DNA of 64,000 nt from a virus (lineage: Duplodnaviria > Caudoviricetes). Both the position numbers and the translations under genes were made by a program. Every line of letters starts with the position of its first letter. The first letter of the stretch is position 1. Shown in pieces: positions 10,077 to 18,940 of the stretch. The DNA lies in IMG/VR virus record IMGVR_UViG_3300027991_000002, positions 11,208 to 75,207 of that record. One strand, given 5' to 3'. A model generated the notes under the pieces. It was not told where the DNA came from. It worked only from the letters and a program-made list of their open reading frames with translations, and searched no databases.

Positions 10077-11108
10077 ATGCAAGCAACAGAAACGAATGCC
10101 CTTGTTCAAGTAGTTGAAACAAGCGGACTCGAACAAACTAAAGGGCAAATCCTTTTAGGAATGTTCACCCCATACTTTAACCGTATGGCAGAAATTGAGG
10201 GTAAAATTAATTTGCTCAATAAAGAAAATCCATCTCCTCAAGATGTGAGCGCGGCAAGAGATATTCGTATCTCTCTGATGAAAGAGGTTCGCAAGCCAGC
10301 CGAGCGCGTGAAGGATGAAGGAAAAAAGTCAATCCTTATTGAAGGTCGCCTGTATGACAATCTATACGGAGTGATTAACAACACCTCCAAAGGGCTTGAA
10401 ATGCAATGTGAGCAAATTGAAAAGTTCGCTGAACTTCGAGATTTAAAAATGCGTGAAGAAAGAAAGGTTAAACGAGTAGAGCAACTTTCTCCCTATGTTC
10501 CTGATATTTCATTTTACGATTTACTCAATATGCCTGACGATGCTTTTAACTCATTACTTGCTACTCAAAAAGCAGGACAAGAGGCATTGTTAGCCCAACA
10601 AAAAAGAGAAGAAGAAGAAAGAATCGCAAAGGAAAAAGCTGATGCCGAAGCGCGTGAAGCACAGAGGGTAGAAAATGAACGGCTTAAAGCAGAGGCGGCA
10701 GAAAAGGAAAGGCAACTTGCCGAAGAACGCGCAAAAGTAGAAGCGGAGCGTAAAGCCGCAGAAGAAAAGTTACGCAAGGAAAGAGCCGAAGCCGATGCTA
10801 AAATAAAAGCCGCGCAGGAAGCGCAAGCCAAGGTTGAGGCAGAATTAAAAGCCAAAGCCGATGCAGAAGAAAAAGCGAAGCGTGAAGCCGAAGCAAAAGC
10901 AGCAGCCGAACTAAAAGCACAACAAGCCGCAGAAAAGAAAGCCGCGAAAGCACCTGACAAAGAAAAACTAAATAAATGGATTTCTGATTTTGACTTGCAA
11001 CCGCTTCTCACATTAAAAGATGCTGGCGCAAAACAAATTGAAGAAGATATAGTCAGAAAGTTTTCTGCATTTAAAACATGGGCATTGCAACAAATCGAAA
11101 CGCTATGA
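10077..11108 (+). CDS. coiled-coil protein (343 aa) of the recombination module
   Basis: Long Ala/Glu/Lys-rich helix; lies between SSB-like gene and nuclease. Confidence 0.75.
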   Translation: MQATETNALVQVVETSGLEQTKGQILLGMFTPYFNRMAEIEGKINLLNKENPSPQDVSAARDIRISLMKEVRKPAERVKDEGKKSILIEGRLYDNLYGVINNTSKGLEMQCEQIEKFAELRDLKMREERKVKRVEQLSPYVPDISFYDLLNMPDDAFNSLLATQKAGQEALLAQQKREEEERIAKEKADAEAREAQRVENERLKAEAAEKERQLAEERAKVEAERKAAEEKLRKERAEADAKIKAAQEAQAKVEAELKAKADAEEKAKREAEAKAAAELKAQQAAEKKAAKAPDKEKLNKWISDFDLQPLLTLKDAGAKQIEEDIVRKFSAFKTWALQQIETL

Positions 11109-12115
11109 ACACAAAAGATTTTGAAGAAGTAAAAACCGTTTGGACGGATGACATTATCATTCACAAACAGCCGTATACCGTTTACAGAATAAAAGTTGGC
11201 GGAGGAAGAATTTACTATACGCTGGATGCAGACAATAATCCTACGTTCTATATTTCGCTCACCACCCTTACCAAGCATACGCTCCCAACGGGAGAACAAT
11301 TAATAAAATGGATTGCTCAAACAGGGTACTATGAGTCTAAGAGATATATGAACGAAAGAGCAAACTACGGTACTTTAATGCACATGGCAATCGGACAATT
11401 CCTTATCTTAAAGTTTTGGAACTTTGAACAGTCCGAAGATTTTATTACCAACACTATTCAAGATGGGGCTATTGATGCTATTGAACCCGATAAGTATAAT
11501 GATGACCTGAATCGTGACGTTGCCGCATTCGCTCAATTTTGTGTAGAGCATAAAGTAAGACCATTGGCAATAGAACTTGTACTTGTATCTAATAAAGGGT
11601 ACGCTACTTTAATTGACCTTGTGTGCAGAATGACTATTGAGGAGAAAGGGTACTTTGGAGAAACGTACAAGTCAGGAGTACAAAAAGGAAATCCGAAAGA
11701 ATCAAAACGCGAAAAAGAAATCACCGCGCTGTTAAACTTTAAATCAGGCAAGAAAGGATTTTATGAGGAGAACGAAATTCAACTTGAGTTTGAAAAGAAA
11801 TTGTTTGAAGAAAATTATCCTGAAATAAAAATTGACAAGATATTTAATTGGTCGCCTAAAGATTGGAACAACTCACCAACATATAATCTGAAAGACCAAT
11901 CTGATTCATTGAACAAAGAAAAGGCAGATGCCCTACTTGCTATTGCCGCGATTGAGCTTATGAAAAAAACTCCGATGGAAAGAAAGTTAGTAGGCACACT
12001 TTCGCTTGGTCAAACTCCGCAAATTGAAGACAAAACTATTTATGATATTGTCAGGGAGCGAGCCGCGAAAAGGCACGTAGAGAATGTTCCGAAGAAAGAA
12101 GAAATGGCAATTTGA
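11105..12115 (+). CDS. PD-(D/E)XK (Cas4/RecB-like) exonuclease
   Basis: YGTLMH, ELVLVS-x-KGYATLIDLV, LNFKSG, EIQL motifs; start moved to ATG 11105 (ATGA overlap). Confidence 0.75.
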   Translation: MNTKDFEEVKTVWTDDIIIHKQPYTVYRIKVGGGRIYYTLDADNNPTFYISLTTLTKHTLPTGEQLIKWIAQTGYYESKRYMNERANYGTLMHMAIGQFLILKFWNFEQSEDFITNTIQDGAIDAIEPDKYNDDLNRDVAAFAQFCVEHKVRPLAIELVLVSNKGYATLIDLVCRMTIEEKGYFGETYKSGVQKGNPKESKREKEITALLNFKSGKKGFYEENEIQLEFEKKLFEENYPEIKIDKIFNWSPKDWNNSPTYNLKDQSDSLNKEKADALLAIAAIELMKKTPMERKLVGTLSLGQTPQIEDKTIYDIVRERAAKRHVENVPKKEEMAI

Positions 12116-12148
12116 AACAGTTGAATAGCCCCTCATGTAAACCAATAG

Positions 12149-12238
12149 ATAGAACGAAGAAGCACTAACGAATGTAAAATTTTTGCCATTGAAAACAGAC
12201 AGATTAAAAATTTTATTTCGCTTTGTGCTGTGTTATGC
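12149..12238. repeat. attC-like site A (90 bp)
   Basis: AAC gaaga AGCACTAACGAATGTAAAATTTTT ... AAAAATTTTATTTCGCTTTGTGCT gt GTT. Confidence 0.75.
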
Positions 12239-12324
12239 GAGTGCGCATGGATTTTATGCGGTGGGGTTCGTTCTTTTTTCTGTTTTCAATTTTTAGCGTT
12301 GGCATTAATTAAACAATCATAAAT

Positions 12325-12741
12325 ATGAAAAGGCAACAAACAATAGTATCGGAAAAAGAAATCCTGAAACTCGGTGGAGTTGATAAGGGATATAAATTTG
12401 AACGCACCAAGCATGAACATGGGGATAGAGAAAAAATATTCTATAAGCAATGGAAGAAGGAAAATAAGCAGTTACGATGGCTAAACTTCGGGCAGGGAAT
12501 ATTGCAGGATTTATTTGCCATTACTGGTAATAATCCTTTCAACTTTATGAGGGGAGGATTGATAGGTTGGAAATTAATAATCAACAGGAGGGATAGATAC
12601 ATTGTGGCAACAGTGATGCAATGGCTCGGAACAAATTGCGGTTGGTGCTGGCTTGAAGAAACACTTAGGAAGTGCGGGTACAGATTAGAAAAAATTGAGC
12701 GGGAGGAAAAAATTGAAAACAGAAAAAAGAATGTCGCATAA
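12325..12741 (+). CDS. cassette cargo, hypothetical protein (138 aa)
   Basis: Stop TAA lies inside TCGCATAAC of site B; VATVMQWLGTNCG motif. Confidence 0.8.
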   Translation: MKRQQTIVSEKEILKLGGVDKGYKFERTKHEHGDREKIFYKQWKKENKQLRWLNFGQGILQDLFAITGNNPFNFMRGGLIGWKLIINRRDRYIVATVMQWLGTNCGWCWLEETLRKCGYRLEKIEREEKIENRKKNVA

Positions 12742-12793
12742 CGGCAAACGCTTTATGCCGTTATTTTCAATGGCATTAAAGCGTATGTTCTAT
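12736..12793. repeat. attC-like site B (58 bp)
   Basis: AAC ggcaa ACGCTTT-ATGCC loop GGCATTAAAGCGT at GTT; one extrahelical base. Confidence 0.85.
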
Positions 12794-12818
12794 TTAGGTT
12801 TTTAAAATTCTTTGAGCG

Positions 12819-13031
12819 ATGGCAAACAAAATATGCAGAATAACAATATTAGCTTTCATGTTCGGAGATATACCGAAAGGAATTGAGAACGGATATGATG
12901 ATTGGGACTTAGAAAACGGAATACAATATTGTGAAGAATTGATGCGCTATGAAGGAATGACACATGAACCGATGGATAAGTTTGAGTTGAAGAAATATAT
13001 TGAATGGGCAAAACAGAAATTGAAAGAGTGA
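12819..13031 (+). CDS. cassette cargo, hypothetical protein (70 aa)
   Basis: ORF track; between sites B and C. Confidence 0.7.
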   Translation: MANKICRITILAFMFGDIPKGIENGYDDWDLENGIQYCEELMRYEGMTHEPMDKFELKKYIEWAKQKLKE

Positions 13032-13054
13032 GTGTGGCAATTTTAAAAACTTGA

Positions 13055-13391
13055 ATAGAACGTTGCTCGGATTGAAGAATGTAAATTAAAATTATAGCGA
13101 TGCACAAGAACAGAACAGCAAACGGATTAAGGTTGCAAGAGCAACATAACCAACGTTACAAGAAAATGTTGATAGGAAAAAAAGCGAAGGACGGGCGAAC
13201 GGTTATTAACACAGAATGGATTGGAAACAGCACATACGGATGTGTTCGATTATTTTTCGATAATCAAACCGATGATTTATGTAGTAGTACAATGGGATTT
13301 AAACCGACAAGAGAGGATTTTACAGACAGGTACGGAATTACATGGTGAGCGATGGCAATTTTAATTTATTTCTTTCAATCTGGTGTTAGTT
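13055..13391. repeat. attC-like site C (337 bp, gene in loop)
   Basis: GATTGAA-GAATGTAAATTAAAATT pairs with AATTTTAATTTATTTCTTTCAATC (13358-13380). Confidence 0.8.
13100..13348 (+). CDS. hypothetical protein inside attC C loop (82 aa)
   Basis: ORF track; bracketed by AGCGATG motifs. Confidence 0.7.
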   Translation: MHKNRTANGLRLQEQHNQRYKKMLIGKKAKDGRTVINTEWIGNSTYGCVRLFFDNQTDDLCSSTMGFKPTREDFTDRYGITW

Positions 13392-13421
13392 TTAGTTTTT
13401 AACAGGCAAACAAAATAGAAA

Positions 13422-13613
13422 ATGGAAAAGTTATCAGACAAAGCAGAAAAGAGAATTAAGAAAATCTATCCTGATGCGAGGGCAGAGAGGGATGGCGCAA
13501 TGTTCTTTATAGTAACTGACTTACTTAAAGGAGAGGACAGAACTTTAGGTGGTGGATTTAGCAGAGATGGCGCGTGGTGTAGCGCGGGTTGCTCTGTGCC
13601 TGTTAAAAATTGA
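13422..13613 (+). CDS. cassette cargo, hypothetical protein (63 aa)
   Basis: ORF track; ends in the outer arm of site D. Confidence 0.7.
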   Translation: MEKLSDKAEKRIKKIYPDARAERDGAMFFIVTDLLKGEDRTLGGGFSRDGAWCSAGCSVPVKN

Positions 13614-13959
13614 AACTAACGAGGAAGGATTTGTGAAGTAAAATTTTCGATTAAAAACTATAACCTTTAAAAACAGAAAAGCGATGGAAGTAAAAGGATT
13701 TTATATCAGAAGCAATGGCGACCCTTCGGTTGGTATATTCTCTGCTCAATGGGAATTGCGAAATGACTTCGTATTTGACGACATAGAAGATTTGGAATAT
13801 TTCAGGTCGGGGCTTGCGCGTTTGCTCGGTGAGCATTGCGGGGAGAGGTGCTATGTGCAAACTTTTGAGGAGTGGGCTGAACAAATTAAATTAGAAGAAA
13901 AAATGTGTAGTGACGCACAGAAGGAAGAAAATTTTATTTCATCAAATCCTGTGTTGTCG
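13614..13959. repeat. attC-like site D (346 bp)
   Basis: GGATTTG-TGAAGTAAAATTTT pairs with AAAATTTTATTTCATCAAATCC (13928-13949), then tgt GTT at 13953. Confidence 0.8.
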
Positions 13960-14046
13960 GATAGTTTGCCTTTTGATTTAGCAAGTCATCCTGACACAGA
14001 AGCTGACGGACATGTATTCTGCGGTAAATGTGGAAAAGAAAAGTGA
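13684..14046 (+). CDS. hypothetical protein reading through the attC D arm (120 aa)
   Basis: Peptide ENFISSNPVLSDSL is the attC arm; C-terminal CxxC. Confidence 0.7.
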   Translation: MEVKGFYIRSNGDPSVGIFSAQWELRNDFVFDDIEDLEYFRSGLARLLGEHCGERCYVQTFEEWAEQIKLEEKMCSDAQKEENFISSNPVLSDSLPFDLASHPDTEADGHVFCGKCGKEK

Positions 14047-14056
14047 GGCAAATTTC

Positions 14057-14588
14057 CGACAACGGGAAGGGGATTGAAGAATGTATTTTAATTTTTTAGC
14101 ATGGGCAAACTAATGGTAACACCAATATTCCAAAACGAAGCGTTCGCGTTCATCGAACAACACCACAGGCATCATAGAAAGCCAGTAGGCAGCGTGTTTC
14201 AGATTGCAGTGAGCGAGGGTGAGCGTGTGGCAGGGGTGGCGGTTGTTGGCAGACCAAACGGACGAAAACAGCAGGACGGATTTACATTAGAAGTTACACG
14301 GCTATGCACAGACGGAACTAAAAATGCCTGCTCAATGCTTTATGCAGCTTGCTGGAGAGCAGCCAAAGAATTAGGTTATCGAAAACTGATTACATACATA
14401 CTGAACACTGAGCCGGGGACATCATTAAAAGCAAGCGGGTGGAGATGCGTTGGGGAGCGCGGTGGCGGGAGTTGGAACGTACCGAGCCGCCCCCGTGTTG
14501 ACAAACATCCGTTGCAGAAAAAATTGTTATTTGAAATCGAGTAGCGCGATGGGAAAATTAAAATATTTCTTTCAATCCCATGTTGTTG
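14057..14588. repeat. attC-like site E (532 bp, gene in loop)
   Basis: GGGATTGAA-GAATGTATTTTAATTTT pairs with AAAATTAAAATATTTCTTTCAATCCC, then at GTT at 14582. Confidence 0.8.
14101..14544 (+). CDS. XF1762-family (Mom-like GNAT-fold) protein
   Basis: FIEQHHRHH, GVAVVGRP, TLEVTRLCTDGTKNACSMLY, LITYIL, GTSLKASGW motifs. Confidence 0.8.
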   Translation: MGKLMVTPIFQNEAFAFIEQHHRHHRKPVGSVFQIAVSEGERVAGVAVVGRPNGRKQQDGFTLEVTRLCTDGTKNACSMLYAACWRAAKELGYRKLITYILNTEPGTSLKASGWRCVGERGGGSWNVPSRPRVDKHPLQKKLLFEIE

Positions 14589-14621
14589 GCAGCGTAGCTG
14601 AGTTTGCTTTTCGCAAATTGC

Positions 14622-14831
14622 CAACAACGTCACGCAGGATTTATGAAGGATTTTTTACGATTTTAAAACCAACAAATATGAAAACACCAAAAGAAATTTT
14701 AGAAGGAAAACAAGCATTCAAAGATTTCCTGTATAAAGCACCCGACTGGATTAGGGAAGACATTATTGCAGCAATGATGGAATACGCATTGGAGCAAGTA
14801 AAAAATCTTTCATTAAATCCTGTTGTTGTTG
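14622..14831. repeat. attC-like site F (210 bp)
   Basis: AGGATTT-ATGAAGGATTTTTTAC pairs with GTAAAAAATCTTTCATTAAATCCT, then gtt GTT at 14825. Confidence 0.8.
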
Positions 14832-14938
14832 GGCGCAGCGAACAGTTAAAATCTGACTTGTACAAATTCAGGGATATGTATTGTCAAAATATTGACTTAG
14901 CTACCATAGATGAATATGTTGACGGCTTAGGATTTTAA
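14678..14938 (+). CDS. hypothetical protein reading through the attC F arm (86 aa)
   Basis: Start moved to ATG 14678 (A-rich context); VKNLSLNPVVVGRSEQL is encoded by the arm. Confidence 0.65.
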   Translation: MKTPKEILEGKQAFKDFLYKAPDWIREDIIAAMMEYALEQVKNLSLNPVVVGRSEQLKSDLYKFRDMYCQNIDLATIDEYVDGLGF

Positions 14939-14942
14939 TTGC

Positions 14943-15073
14943 CAACAACGTTCATCGGATTTATTCTCGTTGCATTAAATGATAAAAACTTAAACCATAA
15001 ATAAAACTCATTATGAAAAACAAACCTACGATTAAAAAGAAAGCCAGCAATGGAATGAAATCCGTTGTTCATG
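14943..15073. repeat. attC-like site G (131 bp)
   Basis: GGATTT-ATTCTCGTTGC pairs with GCAATGGAATGAAATCC, then gtt GTT at 15067. Confidence 0.7.
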
Positions 15074-15333
15074 GCAGTGCGGATAAATGGTCAAAAATTA
15101 AGTGGAGCAAAAAAGTTTTGCAAAAAGCGCAGGAAAATCATATCTGGTTGAACGCTTTTGATTGCGTAAGACCGACACCTGCATTCTGCGAAAGTCTTGG
15201 TAGGTCAATCATCAATAAATTACGGGATGAAGAAAATTTAATCCCGATGAGTGGCATTACATCGGATGTTGAAGCGATGCGAGAGATTGCAAAACTTACC
15301 CCGATAATGTACATGAGCATTAACAAGAGCTAA
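15013..15333 (+). CDS. hypothetical protein reading through the attC G arm (106 aa)
   Basis: ASNGMKSVVHGSA is encoded by the arm. Confidence 0.65.
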   Translation: MKNKPTIKKKASNGMKSVVHGSADKWSKIKWSKKVLQKAQENHIWLNAFDCVRPTPAFCESLGRSIINKLRDEENLIPMSGITSDVEAMREIAKLTPIMYMSINKS

Positions 15334-15347
15334 GATGTGAGCATTGC

Positions 15348-15404
15348 CATGAACGGTAGAGATTGTTGCCGTTAATTTCAATGGCATACAATCTAATGTT
15401 ATCT
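15348..15404. repeat. attC-like site H (57 bp)
   Basis: AGATTGT-TGCC gttaatttcaat GGCATACAATCT; loop nearly identical to that of site B. Confidence 0.85.
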
Positions 15405-15436
15405 GCCGTTTTGGATTAACTAAATAAATATAAATT

Positions 15437-15742
15437 ATGAAAGCAAAAGAGTATGCACAAAGGGTAACAAGTACAGAAAATGTTCAAGATGCAATGACTG
15501 AGCTTGGCAAATGCGGAAAAGATTTTTTCAACGAATTTATCGCAATGAGAAAATCACGTAACATAAAAACCGATGATGGATTATTAACGCTGGTGAAAGA
15601 GTTCGATAATAAATTCAGAACATTTTCTGTACTTGTGGATTCACACTACAAAGGGATGGTTAAACCAAATGGATTCATTGAACTGCTTCGGGAGTTTGTT
15701 CCTGTACTTGCTAATGAATATGAAAGGAAAAATGGCAGATAA
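15437..15742 (+). CDS. cassette cargo, hypothetical protein (101 aa)
   Basis: Stop TAA lies inside GCAGATAAC of site I. Confidence 0.75.
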   Translation: MKAKEYAQRVTSTENVQDAMTELGKCGKDFFNEFIAMRKSRNIKTDDGLLTLVKEFDNKFRTFSVLVDSHYKGMVKPNGFIELLREFVPVLANEYERKNGR

Positions 15743-16571
15743 CGGTTACGGCTTTAAGCAGTGGGGATTATTAGCACAAATGTTCAATCGAAGCGATAAA
15801 AAAAATAAAGAAAAATTTTTAGGGAGGCATTTTTAATTTAATCATTTAATCATAAATAAAACAAAATGGAAAAAGTAACAAACACAGCAAAGAACCCACG
15901 ACTTGAATGGTTGATGGGTGGAAATCCTAATGCTATTGAAGCACAGGAAGTGCAAGGACAAAAGGAACTTGTGAAATCATCACAACTACCAGCGAAAGTA
16001 AATTCGCCAAGAGGAGTGAACATTGAGGAGCAATACGCCTTGATGGGAATAAAAGTAATTGGCAAAACCAAAGGAGATGAATTATTCCTTGATGTGGAAT
16101 TGCCAAATGGGTGGAAGAAGGAAGCAACCGACCATTCAATGTGGAATAAATTGGTTGATGATAAAGGAAGGGAAAGGGCAAGTTTCTTTTACAAAGCTGC
16201 ATTTTATGACCGAGATGCTTTTGTGAATTTTAGCACACGGTATAATTGGAATGCCAATTACGAGGATAAGGACAATGTGAGCTACTTTGTAAAAGATAAC
16301 TCCATAGGTGAAATTGTATTTGAAACAGAAAAGATGAGTAAAGATGTAAAACAGCCGAACTACTTTAAAATACAGGATGAGTTACAAAACCAATGTAAAC
16401 AATTTCTGAAAGACAAGTTCCCTGAACACGAAAACATAAATGCTTATTGGAATTAAATCATTTAATCATTAAGAGCGTGGGCAAAAATTTTTCTTTATTT
16501 TTTTTCGTTCATATCAGCACGAACTTAAATATGGAGCGATACACCCCATTGCTTTAAAGCCGATGTTATGC
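15737..16571. repeat. attC-like site I (835 bp, gene in loop)
   Basis: CGGCTTT-AAGCAGTGGGG / CCCCATTGCTTTAAAGCCG plus AAAAAAAATAAAGAAAAATTTTT / AAAAATTTTTCTTTATTTTTTTT. Confidence 0.85.
15866..16456 (+). CDS. conserved phage protein inside attC I loop (196 aa)
   Basis: NPNAIEAQEVQGQKELV, LPNGWKKEATDHSMW, GRERASFFYKAAFYDRDA motifs. Confidence 0.85.
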   Translation: MEKVTNTAKNPRLEWLMGGNPNAIEAQEVQGQKELVKSSQLPAKVNSPRGVNIEEQYALMGIKVIGKTKGDELFLDVELPNGWKKEATDHSMWNKLVDDKGRERASFFYKAAFYDRDAFVNFSTRYNWNANYEDKDNVSYFVKDNSIGEIVFETEKMSKDVKQPNYFKIQDELQNQCKQFLKDKFPEHENINAYWN

Positions 16572-16733
16572 GAAGTTGCCAATACCAAATTCAAAAAGAC
16601 AAAAAACTCATTGGCAATTTTGCATAACGTTCGAGGATAAACGAAGTGCATGAGTAACCGAAAAATTAACTGAACAGCAAGTAAGAAATTTTAATAAAAA
16701 TATTTTTAGGGAGGGAATTTAAAAAACAACATT

Positions 16734-16892
16734 ATGAAAATAAACTTTGATGTGAACCTGCCGGATTGGTTTGTAATAACCGGACTTACTGTTTTTACAG
16801 TTTGGATGATTCTTGACATAATAAAAAACTGGCTCAAACTTATCATTTGGAATTATGAGAGGAAAATTAAAAAAATGGAAAACGAAAAGTAA
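16734..16892 (+). CDS. small membrane protein inside attC J loop (52 aa)
   Basis: Translated by hand; one hydrophobic helix; TAATG coupling to next gene. Confidence 0.6.
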   Translation: MKINFDVNLPDWFVITGLTVFTVWMILDIIKNWLKLIIWNYERKIKKMENEK

Positions 16893-17317
16893 TGGCAATC
16901 TTAAACTATACAACCTCCATTGATTCTGAAAAGACAATCGGAGAGATTCAAAAATGCTTAGTGAAGCACGGGGCAATGAAAATCACCACTGATTATCAGA
17001 ACGGGATTCCATGCGCTGTTACTTTCTGCCTAATCATCAAAGAGAATATGGTTGGGTTTGCATTGCCAGCAAATTATTCAGGCGTTCTCAGGGCAATGAA
17101 GCGAGATGGAAAAGTTCCGCGCTCAAAATGCACAGAGGAGCAGGCAATAAAAGTTTCATGGAGAATAGTGAAAGACTGGGTTGAAGCGCAGATGGCAATA
17201 GTTGAAGCTGAACTTGCACAGATGGCGGAAGTGTTTTTGCCGTATGCAGTTACAAAGAATGGAAACACTCTTTGGAAACAGATGGAAGGAAACGGAATGT
17301 TATTACTTAACTCTTAA
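16892..17317 (+). CDS. conserved phage protein inside attC J loop (141 aa)
   Basis: NYTTSI..EKTIGEIQ..L..HGA, VSWRIVKDWVEAQMA, EVFLPY motifs. Confidence 0.85.
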   Translation: MAILNYTTSIDSEKTIGEIQKCLVKHGAMKITTDYQNGIPCAVTFCLIIKENMVGFALPANYSGVLRAMKRDGKVPRSKCTEEQAIKVSWRIVKDWVEAQMAIVEAELAQMAEVFLPYAVTKNGNTLWKQMEGNGMLLLNS

Positions 17318-17485
17318 CCTTTTTACAATTTGAAAAATTGTGATGAGCGTAGGCAAAATATTTTTATTAAAATTTCTCTAACCGTAATTGACAGTACAGA
17401 TGGAAGCATTTCGTTTATCCTTTGTTATCAGATGAAAAATTATCCCTTTTGAGCGCGGGATGCTCGTAATTTAATAATTACAAAA

Positions 17486-17683
17486 ATGAAAACATGGGAA
17501 TATAAAATTAATAGCGTAAATGAATATGATGCTTTTGAAAATGTTGGCGGCTCGGTTGCCGAAAGAATTTTAGATGGAGCGTCAAAAGACGGATGGGAAT
17601 TAGTGTCTGTTGTCGGAATAAACACAATGGTAATTTTTTACTTTAAAAGAGAATTAAATAATGGAGGTGCGGTGGCGGGATAA
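17486..17683 (+). CDS. DUF4177-like small protein (cassette cargo)
   Basis: MKTWEYK ... DGWELVSV ... FYFKRE signature. Confidence 0.8.
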   Translation: MKTWEYKINSVNEYDAFENVGGSVAERILDGASKDGWELVSVVGINTMVIFYFKRELNNGGAVAG

Positions 17684-17692
17684 TTTTTTTTC

Positions 17693-17820
17693 TGATAACG
17701 GATGAAGATAAAAGAAGCAGCCCTAAATAGAATGTTCAGCGGGTACGTAACCGATAGGGTAACTGAACTTAGGCAGACCTCCGATTTTGCTCGGCTGTTT
17801 CTTTTTATCTTGTGTTGTGT
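17693..17820. repeat. attC-like site K (128 bp)
   Basis: AAC ggatg AAGATAAAA-GAAGCAGCC pairs with GGCTGTTTCTTTTTATCTT gt GTT. Confidence 0.85.
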
Positions 17821-17878
17821 GAGAGCATAGGGATTTCAGGCGATGGGCAGTTTTTAACTTAAAATAATTTTAAAGCGT

Positions 17879-18193
17879 ATGGCAAAGATTTATTTCAGCA
17901 AATACAATGATGAGGAAGTGGCTTATACATTGGACTATTGGAAAACTTACATGGAAGAAAACCTCATTGAAGAAATGACATTGTTTGAAGGCAAGCGAAT
18001 GACAGGCGAGGGCTATTTCTATTGTAAAGAATACTTTGAAGTTGGATTAGCGAGAGAGTCATGTGGAAAGATATGCGAGGGATATAAGCCGAACAATGGC
18101 AAGAATGGCAGATGCAAACATTATGGATATTGCTATGAGCCAACAGATAAAAGGTTGGTGTTGCAAGCGGGCGGAAAAATTATTTTAAGTTAA
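17879..18193 (+). CDS. cassette cargo, Cys-rich protein (104 aa)
   Basis: FYCKEY, SCGKICEGYKPNNGKNGRCKHYGYCY. Confidence 0.75.
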   Translation: MAKIYFSKYNDEEVAYTLDYWKTYMEENLIEEMTLFEGKRMTGEGYFYCKEYFEVGLARESCGKICEGYKPNNGKNGRCKHYGYCYEPTDKRLVLQAGGKIILS

Positions 18194-18200
18194 AAATTTC

Positions 18201-18260
18201 ACACAACAAATATATGTATTTTTCTCTTACAACTATTTGAAACTTAAACCATAACACCAT
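18201..18260 (-). other. attI-like site
   Basis: Last AAC (18205-18207) has no hairpin partner. On the minus strand: GTTATGG (18255-18249), GTTGTAA (18233-18227), then GTTGTGTGA, directly beside the integrase-domain gene. Confidence 0.6.
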
Positions 18261-18285
18261 GCAAAATTTTTTGTATATTTAAAAC

Positions 18286-18855
18286 ATGAATAACGCTCTC
18301 ATTTATGCTTTAGCTTGTCCGGAAACAGGTCAAATAAAATATGTTGGCAAAACAAATCATTCATTAAAAAGAAGATTGCAAAATCATATAAATAACAAGA
18401 GGTCAAAAAGCAGGTGCTCTTTTTGGATTAGAGAATTAAAAAGTAAAAATATCTATCCTGAAATAATATTACTTGAAACAGTAATTGATGGGCTATGGAG
18501 ATTTAGAGAATCAGAATGGATAAAAAACTTTGGCAGAGATAATTTATTAAATGAAAACGCAGGCGGTGGAGGAATGGGGACATCTAAGATAAATTATGTT
18601 TTTTCTTTTTCCGAATCTCTTTCACAATATTCTGAAAACACTAAGAGAAACTATTTAAGCATAGTAAAAATATTCTTACATGAACATGGATGCGTTTCAA
18701 CATCAGCAGTTATTATTAATAAAAAAATGATTGAAAATTATATGATGAGATTTAAGAATAGACACAGTTATAATCAAACCTTGTCTGCATTAAAAAAATT
18801 CTTTTTATTTTTAGGTCAACCAAGAAAATTAAATGCAATTAAATATTGGTATTAA
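18286..18855 (+). CDS. GIY-YIG nuclease fused to a tyrosine-integrase N-terminal (SAM-like) domain; no catalytic integrase domain
   Basis: IYALACPETGQIKYVGKT..RLQNH..ESEWI..LLNENAGGGG, then YSENTKRNYLSIVKIFL...SYNQTLSALKKFF (compare IntI STQNQALSALLF). Confidence 0.7.
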   Translation: MNNALIYALACPETGQIKYVGKTNHSLKRRLQNHINNKRSKSRCSFWIRELKSKNIYPEIILLETVIDGLWRFRESEWIKNFGRDNLLNENAGGGGMGTSKINYVFSFSESLSQYSENTKRNYLSIVKIFLHEHGCVSTSAVIINKKMIENYMMRFKNRHSYNQTLSALKKFFLFLGQPRKLNAIKYWY

Positions 18856-18940
18856 CTCTCTCCTTGCAAACTTATATTCACATGAGTTCAAAGATTGTAG
18901 CGAATGTGGTTACTCCGCTAAACTTTATCCGGCAGTCAGC

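Follow-up and report, generated by a model that had tools for sequence, protein, structure and literature searches.

A probable array of integron-like mobile gene cassettes in a phage genome and its recombinase-linked relatives

Why should a run of small phage genes be threaded by stems that are all unlike one another in sequence and yet are paired? The question is raised by positions 12155 to 18206 of a 64,000-nucleotide (nt) stretch, hereafter the window, of the caudoviricete virus IMGVR_UViG_3300027991_000002. The window covers bases 11208 to 75207 of the 75,207-bp IMG/VR virus record, and coordinates below are window positions unless they carry a contig label. An earlier reading of the sequence alone (the original prediction) saw here an integron-like cassette array with 11 attC-like sites. 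Our analysis indicates that 12155 to 18206 is probably an array of 11 mobile gene cassettes, integron-like, orphan in this genome, and served in relatives by a Xer-like recombinase. The offset architecture of the prediction stands, and so in large part does its cassette reading, which is supported by the variation and the recombinase linkage found in relatives; the enzyme itself is absent here and is not IntI. A cassette is counted from the C of one AAC through the AA of the next, and a slash marks this junction (AA/C).

The original prediction listed 11 offset pairs, in which the sequence after one GTT (y) is complementary to the sequence before the next AAC (y′), and all 11 are present. Every GTT flank was scored against every AAC flank with a pairing score that tolerates G·T. 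The next-site (cognate) pairs scored 9, 21, 22, 9, 10, 8, 13, 14, 17, 19, and 10, for a total of 152, while pairing with the AAC of the same site totaled 47 and noncognate pairs averaged 4.0 with a maximum of 10. The flank of the next site was the best partner in every case, and GTT..AAC pairs scoring 13 or more were confined to 12.2 to 18.2 kb, with none elsewhere in the 75-kb genome. Shuffled controls had been named as a test that could refute the pairing; it outperforms the permutations, none of 100,000 random partner assignments having reached 152, and permutation and shuffles together exclude a chance origin. Several repeats flanking genes are longer than first described, an example being the perfect 24-nt pair at 12271 to 12294 and 12708 to 12731.

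Each AAC...GTT interval is also closed by an inverted repeat of its own, and the region consists of 22 consecutive stems that alternate between AAC-spacer-arm...arm-spacer-GTT and GTT-y...y′-AAC. All 22 differ in sequence, yet they are paired, with a median z of −6.6 against shuffled arms (DNA parameters). Folding of both strands, as had been proposed, showed the plus strand to be more stable in 20 of the 22 stems with DNA parameters; RNA parameters gave −600 kcal/mol for the plus strand versus −497 kcal/mol for the minus strand, with 62 versus 23 G·U pairs. The mismatches are mostly G·T on the plus strand, which indicates that one particular strand folds. The spacing AAC-(5 to 8 nt)-arm...arm-(2 to 4 nt)-GTT is as described, and the extra base in the 3′ arm is present in most sites. 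The 11 palindromes have the arms and layout ascribed to them, but only sites A, B, G, H, and K are compact (49 to 123 nt), while the loops of sites C, D, E, F, I, and J measure 200 to 830 nt and enclose genes or gene starts. Except for these six, the boxes, unpaired spacer, extrahelical base, and strand-specific folding of attC architecture are all found. The core-site consensus RYYYAAC and GTTRRRY is not followed; the boxes read, for example, GTTCTAT, GTTATGC, and GTTGTCG, and only AAC and GTT are invariant. The array family has its own site consensus, ATTG-N5-6-AAC paired with GTT-N5-6-TAGT. The cassettes are as follows.

12155 to 12741, plus strand: cassette 1, hairpin A (12153 to 12234), then a GTTATGCGA...TCGCATAA unit with open reading frame (ORF) 12325 to 12741.
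12742 to 13060, plus strand: cassette 2, hairpin B (12740 to 12789, loop GCCGTTATTTTCAATGGC), then a 23-nt repeat unit with ORF 12819 to 13031.
13061 to 13619, plus strand: cassette 3, giant hairpin C with ORF 13100 to 13348 in its loop, then a 24-nt repeat unit with ORF 13422 to 13613.
13620 to 14062, plus strand: cassette 4, ORF 13684 to 14046, starting in loop D and running through the 3′ arm and GTT.
14063 to 14627, plus strand: cassette 5, giant hairpin E with a Mom-like gene (14101 to 14544), then an empty 46-nt GTTGTTGGCA...TGCCAACAA unit.
14628 to 14948, plus strand: cassette 6, ORF 14678 to 14938, which begins in loop F, passes the arm, and reaches the next unit.
14949 to 15353, plus strand: cassette 7, hairpin G, ORF 15013 to 15333 across GTT.
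15354 to 15742, plus strand: cassette 8, hairpin H (15352 to 15400, with the loop motif of B), then ORF 15437 to 15742.
15743 to 16627, plus strand: cassette 9, imperfect arms of ~90 nt around ORF 15866 to 16456, then an empty 63-nt unit.
16628 to 17698, plus strand: cassette 10, arms of ~90 nt around ORFs 16734 to 16892 and 16892 to 17317, then a 23-nt repeat unit with ORF 17486 to 17683.
17699 to 18206, plus strand: cassette 11, hairpin K, then a unit with ORF 17879 to 18193.

In three genes the reading frame continues across a 3′ arm and GTT. By contrast, AA/C is crossed by none of the called genes, and two stop codons (the TAA of cassettes 1 and 8) end exactly there.

Linkage to a recombinase came from relatives, all of them metagenome-derived contigs (labels G and L). 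The loop motif of hairpins B and H led to G001 (74.7 kb), which has almost no genes in common with the window phage and has 5.6 kb of the same stem chain, down to the wobble positions (GTT-N5-6-TAG paired with TTG-N5-6-AAC); one of its sites is 85% identical to the site of cassette 8. At its array end G001 encodes a 394-amino-acid (aa) protein composed of a GIY-YIG-like part, a SAM-like core-binding domain, and the tyrosine-recombinase catalytic domain PF00589 (E 9e-28). The N-terminal part is 39% identical to the GIY-YIG domain encoded in the window, although the Pfam GIY-YIG model is unmatched at E 0.01. Fifteen fusion proteins of this type (GIY-YIG, SAM, and PF00589) were found. In L170, L173, and L174, a gene of the type that encodes the 189-aa protein in the window (see below) is directly followed by a separate tyrosine recombinase gene of 276 to 279 aa. 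One of these, L173, is a 66-kb phage contig with 10 GTT-y...y′-AAC units ahead of the GIY-YIG and recombinase genes. In L175 the array and an attI-like stretch are followed by a 266-aa tyrosine recombinase.

The recombinases of the relatives have XerA-like NF040815 as their best match, below its cutoff. Against TIGR02249, the model for integron integrases, they reach 132 bits (cutoff, 265), and in alignment with VchIntIA (2a3v) they cover 15 to 207 and 246 to 306, leaving the IntI insertion (208 to 245, ~38 residues) unmatched. The low TIGR02249 score and the missing insertion rule out a true integron integrase, and the system is therefore integron-like in its working rather than a member of the integron family. 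The nearest bacterial recombinase, from Rufibacter (P0043), lies in an ordinary chromosomal context without an array. A search of 185,579 species genomes gave a single canonical site, in Bizionia myxarmorum ADA-4 (Flavobacteriaceae; L163), where a three-cassette chain (reverse strand, 246 to 2389) stands beside a tyrosine recombinase that is 33 to 37% identical to the phage enzymes and is oriented towards the array. In this 6-kb locus, tblastn gave no match to the GIY-YIG parts of the query proteins. A single site in cellular genomes fits Bacteroidota hosts and a mainly viral home; the hosts of cassette-array phages are probably Bacteroidota.

At the 3′ end of the array in the window we found the following.

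18207 to 18285, plus strand: attI-like stretch after the last, unpaired AAC (AAC/AAATATATGTATTT...).
18286 to 18855, plus strand: gene for a 189-aa protein with a GIY-YIG nuclease domain and an integrase-type SAM-like core-binding domain.
18873 to 18932, plus strand: possible remnant (tblastn) of the last ~20 codons of a lost tyrosine recombinase (YIHMSSKIVANVVTPLNFIR).

The attI-like stretch resembles those at the same place in L170 (AAC/ATATATCTGTATTT) and L173, as well as an AT-rich palindrome after the last AAC in G001, L026, L029, and L175. The 189-aa protein matches PF01541 (E 1.3e-7) and PF02899 (22.9 bits; cutoff, 22.3), its GIY-YIG motifs appear intact, and its predicted layout is that of a GIY-YIG homing endonuclease, i.e., a catalytic and a DNA-binding domain, free-standing in a phage genome. 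Full-length matches comprise ~14 clusters of relatives with 174 to 224 aa. These full-length relatives of ~200 aa, together with the two-gene form, rule out that the protein is a simple truncation of the fused enzyme. The segment at 18873 to 18932 is the best match in the genome for the L170 and L173 recombinases and lies where the gene would be expected, with E values of 0.7 to 1.6. While G001, L026, L170, L173, and L175 have both an integrase and an attI-like site beside the array, the window has only the attI-like stretch, the GIY-YIG/SAM gene, and this weak remnant. We read this as an apparent deletion of the recombinase gene from this genome, which would leave an orphan array, comparable to the integron arrays without an integrase (CALINs) and movable only with a recombinase supplied in trans.

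Evidence that units move at AA/C was obtained from two noncoding mini-cassettes and from comparisons of contigs, among them two nearly identical arrays. The copies of the mini-cassettes are located as follows.

L009, 1748 to 1891, 3187 to 3330, 3768 to 3911, and 4765 to 4908: mini-cassette of G001.
L026, 455, 2859, and 3282: three identical copies of a different unit.

Both mini-cassettes are 144 nt long. That of G001 occurs in four identical internal copies and in partial copies at the contig ends; it was found in no other IMG/VR record. Each mini-cassette copy stands between x′AA and CGG, the outside flanks share only 3 to 5 nt, and each x′ has its pairing partner in the GTT-y of the preceding cassette. 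Circularizing the G001 unit would create the junction GCTTTTGGGGAA/TGCGATCCGCTT, to which an internal 24-mer is exactly reverse complementary. This unit has AAT and ATT instead of AAC and GTT, and the L026 unit holds a nested small hairpin-plus-unit in its own hairpin loop.

The loop motif of hairpin B is present in more than 118 metagenome stretches, and among the 118 fetched, 48 have the canonical site AACGG-N3-arm-GCCGTTATTTTCAATGGC-arm-TGTT; the system appears to be widespread in uncultured phages. In all 12 comparisons of contigs that share the hairpin and the downstream sequence, (T)AAC is where identity sets in. For the 196-aa gene of cassette 9, 421 homologues were found, many of them on short contigs, and a copy that is 76% identical at the nucleotide level is present in L175, L176, and L177. 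Between L175 and L176, shared blocks are 99.9 to 100% identical, and the two differ by a 787-nt cassette (L176, 779 to 1565) and in their neighbors to the left and right; all four breakpoints lie within 2 nt of AAC/G. The hairpins beside these breakpoints differ, so homology within hairpins offers no explanation. In relatives, then, the cassette boundary lies at the conserved triplet and neighbors change there; the original prediction had staked itself on such gain and loss. It is this natural variation, together with gene linkage in relatives, that supports the cassette reading.

Contigs with the recombinase gene (L027 to L033) nearly always start 48 to 92 nt upstream of it, and L029, L031, L032, and L033 start within a few nucleotides of an AAC junction. 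L030, with the same recombinase, comes from a sister sample and has a different upstream sequence. Metagenome assemblies seem to break at the array edge. Contig L034 (1 to 42) starts with a Nextera transposase adapter (...AGATGTGTATAAGAGACAG), an assembly artifact.

How might such cassettes move? We infer the mechanism from the analogy with integrons and from the bias of folding towards the plus strand. Each cassette can be written as C-[stem-loop 1]-GTT-[stem-loop 2]-AA. In an excised circle, y′ would pair with y, AAC with GTT, and arm with arm, and the fold would be a dumbbell with a long imperfect plus-strand hairpin at its center, in which R box, spacer, L box, and extrahelical base are placed as in an attC bottom strand. 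The predicted circle joints (y′AA/C-hairpin) are ...TCGCATAA/CGAAGAAGCAC for cassette 1 and ...AATGGCAGATAA/CGGTAGAGATT for cassette 8. Strand exchange after AA would be carried out on folded single-stranded sites by a tyrosine recombinase whose gene lies directly 3′ of the array, and the attI-like site beside that gene would serve as a further exchange partner. The GIY-YIG partner might process the intermediate of a one-strand exchange or nick the sites, which is speculation. The single-stranded substrate, the circular intermediate, the acting enzyme, and the role of the GIY-YIG protein are all conditional on that analogy.

Several observations weigh against the cassette reading. Loops of attC sites in integrons are far smaller than the 200 to 830 nt of the six large-loop sites; no PF00589 domain is found in this genome, and the recombinase remnant is statistically weak. 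The breakpoints at (T)AAC in the 12 comparisons could also stem from homologous recombination inside the shared 48-nt hairpin. The original prediction proposed a search for the same cassettes in another order, and none of the window's own cassettes was seen reordered; apart from the 76%-identical homologue in L175 and L176, the window's cassette proteins had no match in ~170 loci. The stem-loop of cassette 9 occupies an AAC..GTT position here (15743 to 16567), while its homologue in L175 occupies a GTT..AAC position (1215 to 2066), the homologous stems being AAGCAGTGGGGATT... in the window and AACCAGTAGGGATT... in L175. A simple cassette model has no explanation for this swap, and the two kinds of unit seem to be interconvertible. 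Finally, the plus strand is also the mRNA strand, and the stems may have a role in RNA.

In the strongest form of this last point, the stems act only in RNA, with flank pairing enclosing the ORFs of a polycistronic early transcript in helices for RNase III-like processing or stabilization. We consider this improbable. That the folded strand is the sense strand, richer in G·U pairs (62 versus 23), that stems of 20 to 24 bp flank ORFs, and that the stems are kept in a genome without the recombinase would all suit a transcript, although folded single-stranded DNA tolerates G·T too. Left unexplained are the identical mini-cassettes at AA/C, gain and loss with AAC/G breakpoints between arrays that are 100% identical, the association of the arrays with a tyrosine recombinase and with an attI-like site, and the status of AAC and GTT as the sole invariant bases. 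Matches in Rfam, which has no attC family, were zero for both the window and G001, and a known RNA family for the stems was dropped. RNA and cassette roles of the stems could coexist.

Shuffling by homology has a precedent in phages, the promoter-early stem-loop (PeSL) cassettes of T4-type phages, in which promoter-plus-terminator repeats are recombined by homology (Arbiol et al. 2010, PMC2839356; PMC4122927). The array shares with PeSL regions the shuffling of ORFan-rich variable DNA at intergenic stem-loops and circles as proposed intermediates, and PeSL cassettes are the nearest phage precedent. The array differs in that its sites are unlike in sequence, offset-paired, linked to a tyrosine recombinase, and without promoter or terminator signal. 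Bearing on homology is a motif, G-N-GCG-NN-GGCA(A), which forms a direct repeat at both ends of nearly every ORF, immediately next to the AT-rich stem arms.

12295 to 12304, 12815 to 12824, 13348 to 13357, and 16474 to 16483, with ~20 looser copies between 12258 and 18180: ORF-flanking motif G-N-GCG-NN-GGCA(A).

Its strict form AGCGNKGGCA occurs in four copies in the array (plus strand), against 0.46 expected in the whole window, and in many cases the start codon falls within the upstream copy (GCG ATG GCA A..). L097 and L139 have a common hairpin, y box, and leader and diverge just before the ORF start, ~25 nt after the motif GAGCG(A/T)TGGCAAA; the first bases of contig L030 (1 to 30) coincide with such a motif. 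Taken together, the repeat, the divergence, and the contig start suggest that ORFs are also exchanged within cassettes, as a second layer.

Could intergenic motifs then serve as homology patches for an exonuclease and an annealing protein, without any dedicated site-specific enzyme? Such PeSL-type modular shuffling seems to us unlikely as the main process. Dozens of contexts contain a nearly identical 48-nt hairpin, the motif flanks nearly every ORF, L097 and L139 diverge after a common leader, an exonuclease gene adjoins the array, and the mini-circles of PeSL cassettes offer a precedent (PMC2839356). But the 11 sites of the window share almost nothing except AAC and GTT and thus offer no homology to recombine, and offset complementarity would have no role. 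Nor are promoters or terminators enriched in the array as the PeSL definition demands: promoter-like sequences number 20 (23.8 expected in shuffles), terminator-like sequences number 6 (4.6 expected), and no promoter of the Bacteroidota −33/−7 type was found in the array. Promoter/terminator cassettes were accordingly rejected. The L175/L176 breakpoints have differing hairpins on one side. Homologous exchange may nevertheless operate in addition, as a second layer at which one ORF within a cassette is replaced by another.

Equally doubtful is a nuclease-driven exchange, in which the GIY-YIG protein, the sole activity left in this genome, would cut or nick junctions through its core-binding domain and recombinational repair would follow as in homing: the ~200-aa GIY-YIG+SAM family is conserved at full length with motifs intact by appearance and its gene always lies at the array end, yet the recombinase gene directly follows it in both fetched relatives (P0242 and P0246; L170 to L174), the two are fused in the G001 family, the L175 and Bizionia arrays have a recombinase and no GIY-YIG match in the fetched locus, which together make the nuclease look accessory, and precise AA/C junctions suit strand exchange better than repair.

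We thus return to mobile cassettes and to their relation to known systems. Integrons are the textbook example of gene collecting and reshuffling in bacteria and are defined by one enzyme family, IntI. Like integrons, the phage system has arrays of mostly single-gene, promoterless cassettes, and its sites are imperfect hairpins in which AAC...GTT triplets are combined with an unpaired spacer and an extrahelical base. In both, the sequence beyond the triplet is part of the neighboring cassette, and crossover is placed after AA (G/TT on the other strand). In both, too, one end holds the recombinase gene together with an attI-like site, in the same arrangement relative to site polarity, and some arrays are orphans that lack an integrase. 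The differences are just as clear. The phage-array recombinase is Xer/XerA-like, has no IntI insertion, and is fused to or preceded by a GIY-YIG/core-binding protein. Outer stems measure 9 to 24 bp rather than 7, RYYYAAC and GTTRRRY are absent, and hairpin loops can hold whole genes. The plus strand, at whose 3′ end the recombinase gene and attI lie, corresponds to the integron bottom strand, yet it carries the cassette genes, which point towards attI, the reverse of integrons. The element is also phage borne and almost absent from cellular genomes (one site in 185,579).

The original prediction was not aware of such an architecture in Bacteroidota phages. Clusters of attC sites in phages are not new: 17 phage CALINs, each with at least two predicted attC sites, have been published, including one in Polaribacter (Bacteroidota) phage P12002L, and IntI1 recombined five of six phage attC sites tested (Qi et al. 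2023, PMC9892861). Those clusters, detected by integron tools, hold two to three sites, and no recombinase of the kind encoded by the window's relatives is linked to them. In the literature we found no paper on this recombinase, its GIY-YIG partner, arrays of such size, or mini-cassettes.

Other Xer-based elements offer a further comparison. CTX phage and integrative mobile elements exploiting Xer (IMEX) use host XerC/D on a hairpin of one strand with a dif-like 28-bp site, the whole element being integrated once, and in Acinetobacter plasmids short recombination sites of alternating orientation delimit the pdif modules. With CTX and IMEX the cassette system would have in common a Xer-type tyrosine recombinase acting on a one-strand hairpin; it differs from these and from pdif modules in that relatives of the window phage encode their own recombinase and have arrays of many cassettes.

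The cargo of the window array is mostly ORFans together with the Mom-like DNA-modification gene of cassette 5 (phrog_1384, E 1.4e-38; PF25680); ten cassette ORFs have no family in PHROGs. In L173 the called array genes include two methyltransferases and a Tad6-family protein, and this cargo of relatives suggests anti-defence genes. A 129-codon open frame (14549 to 14938) has its upstream ATG inside the post-ORF motif of cassette 5 and, if read from there, would continue over junction F into the 86-aa ORF of cassette 6, with which it is in frame. This may be a chance frame or a longer gene over two cassettes.

The surroundings of the array show where the variable module begins. The array lies in a run of small plus-strand genes that extends from an exonuclease gene to the GIY-YIG gene (18286 to 18855), while the minus-strand half of the window holds large structural-type genes. 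The two ends of the record are identical over 127 bp, which looks like an assembly overlap. The left border is the following gene.

11078 to 12115, plus strand: exonuclease gene (phrog_298, E 2.6e-19), conserved left border of the array.

The original prediction placed a single-stranded DNA-binding protein (SSB) gene and an exonuclease gene next to the array and suggested that, with phage replication, they could provide the single-stranded DNA for attC recombination; the exonuclease was verified, but no SSB was identified among the ORFs scanned beside the array. The nearest relative by exonuclease, L035, is 83% identical at the amino acid and ~71% at the nucleotide level, and similarity stops at the 3′ end of this gene. 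In the place of the array, L035 (11002 to 16822) has tightly packed, unrelated small genes and no GTT..AAC chain. The whole array is therefore a variable module, and cassette order cannot be compared in a near relative. Among isolated phages, none resembles the array region; an IMG/VR search with the exonuclease yielded one distant relative, and one with the 189-aa protein yielded no match. Between the exonuclease stop and the first AAC, 12116 to 12155 holds GTTGAATAGC and CAATAGATAGAAC, which are similar to the y′ box of cassette 2 (CTTGAATAGAAC); paired with the AAC flank at this place, the GTT flank of site B scores 9. The stretch may record a previous order of the cassettes.

For the window itself, the array is real and the recombinase is missing. 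Across the family, we lean slightly towards a separate, phage-centered analogue of integrons, in which a Xer-like recombinase and a GIY-YIG nuclease, its core-binding domain borrowed from the recombinase, take up and reshuffle cassettes at sites folded on the coding strand; it would include gene-bearing stem-loops and parasitic mini-cassettes, be widespread, and stock anti-defence genes (Mom, methyltransferases, and Tad6). Such an array would follow integron logic with another kind of tyrosine recombinase, partnered by a nuclease, and would do so in phage genomes that look virulent. If this is true, the cassette strategy has more than one origin or has been transplanted repeatedly, phage metagenome assemblies would have a reason to break at such arrays, and a concrete mechanism would be at hand for “hyperplastic” phage regions rich in ORFans and for the speed at which phages replace their anti-defence genes.

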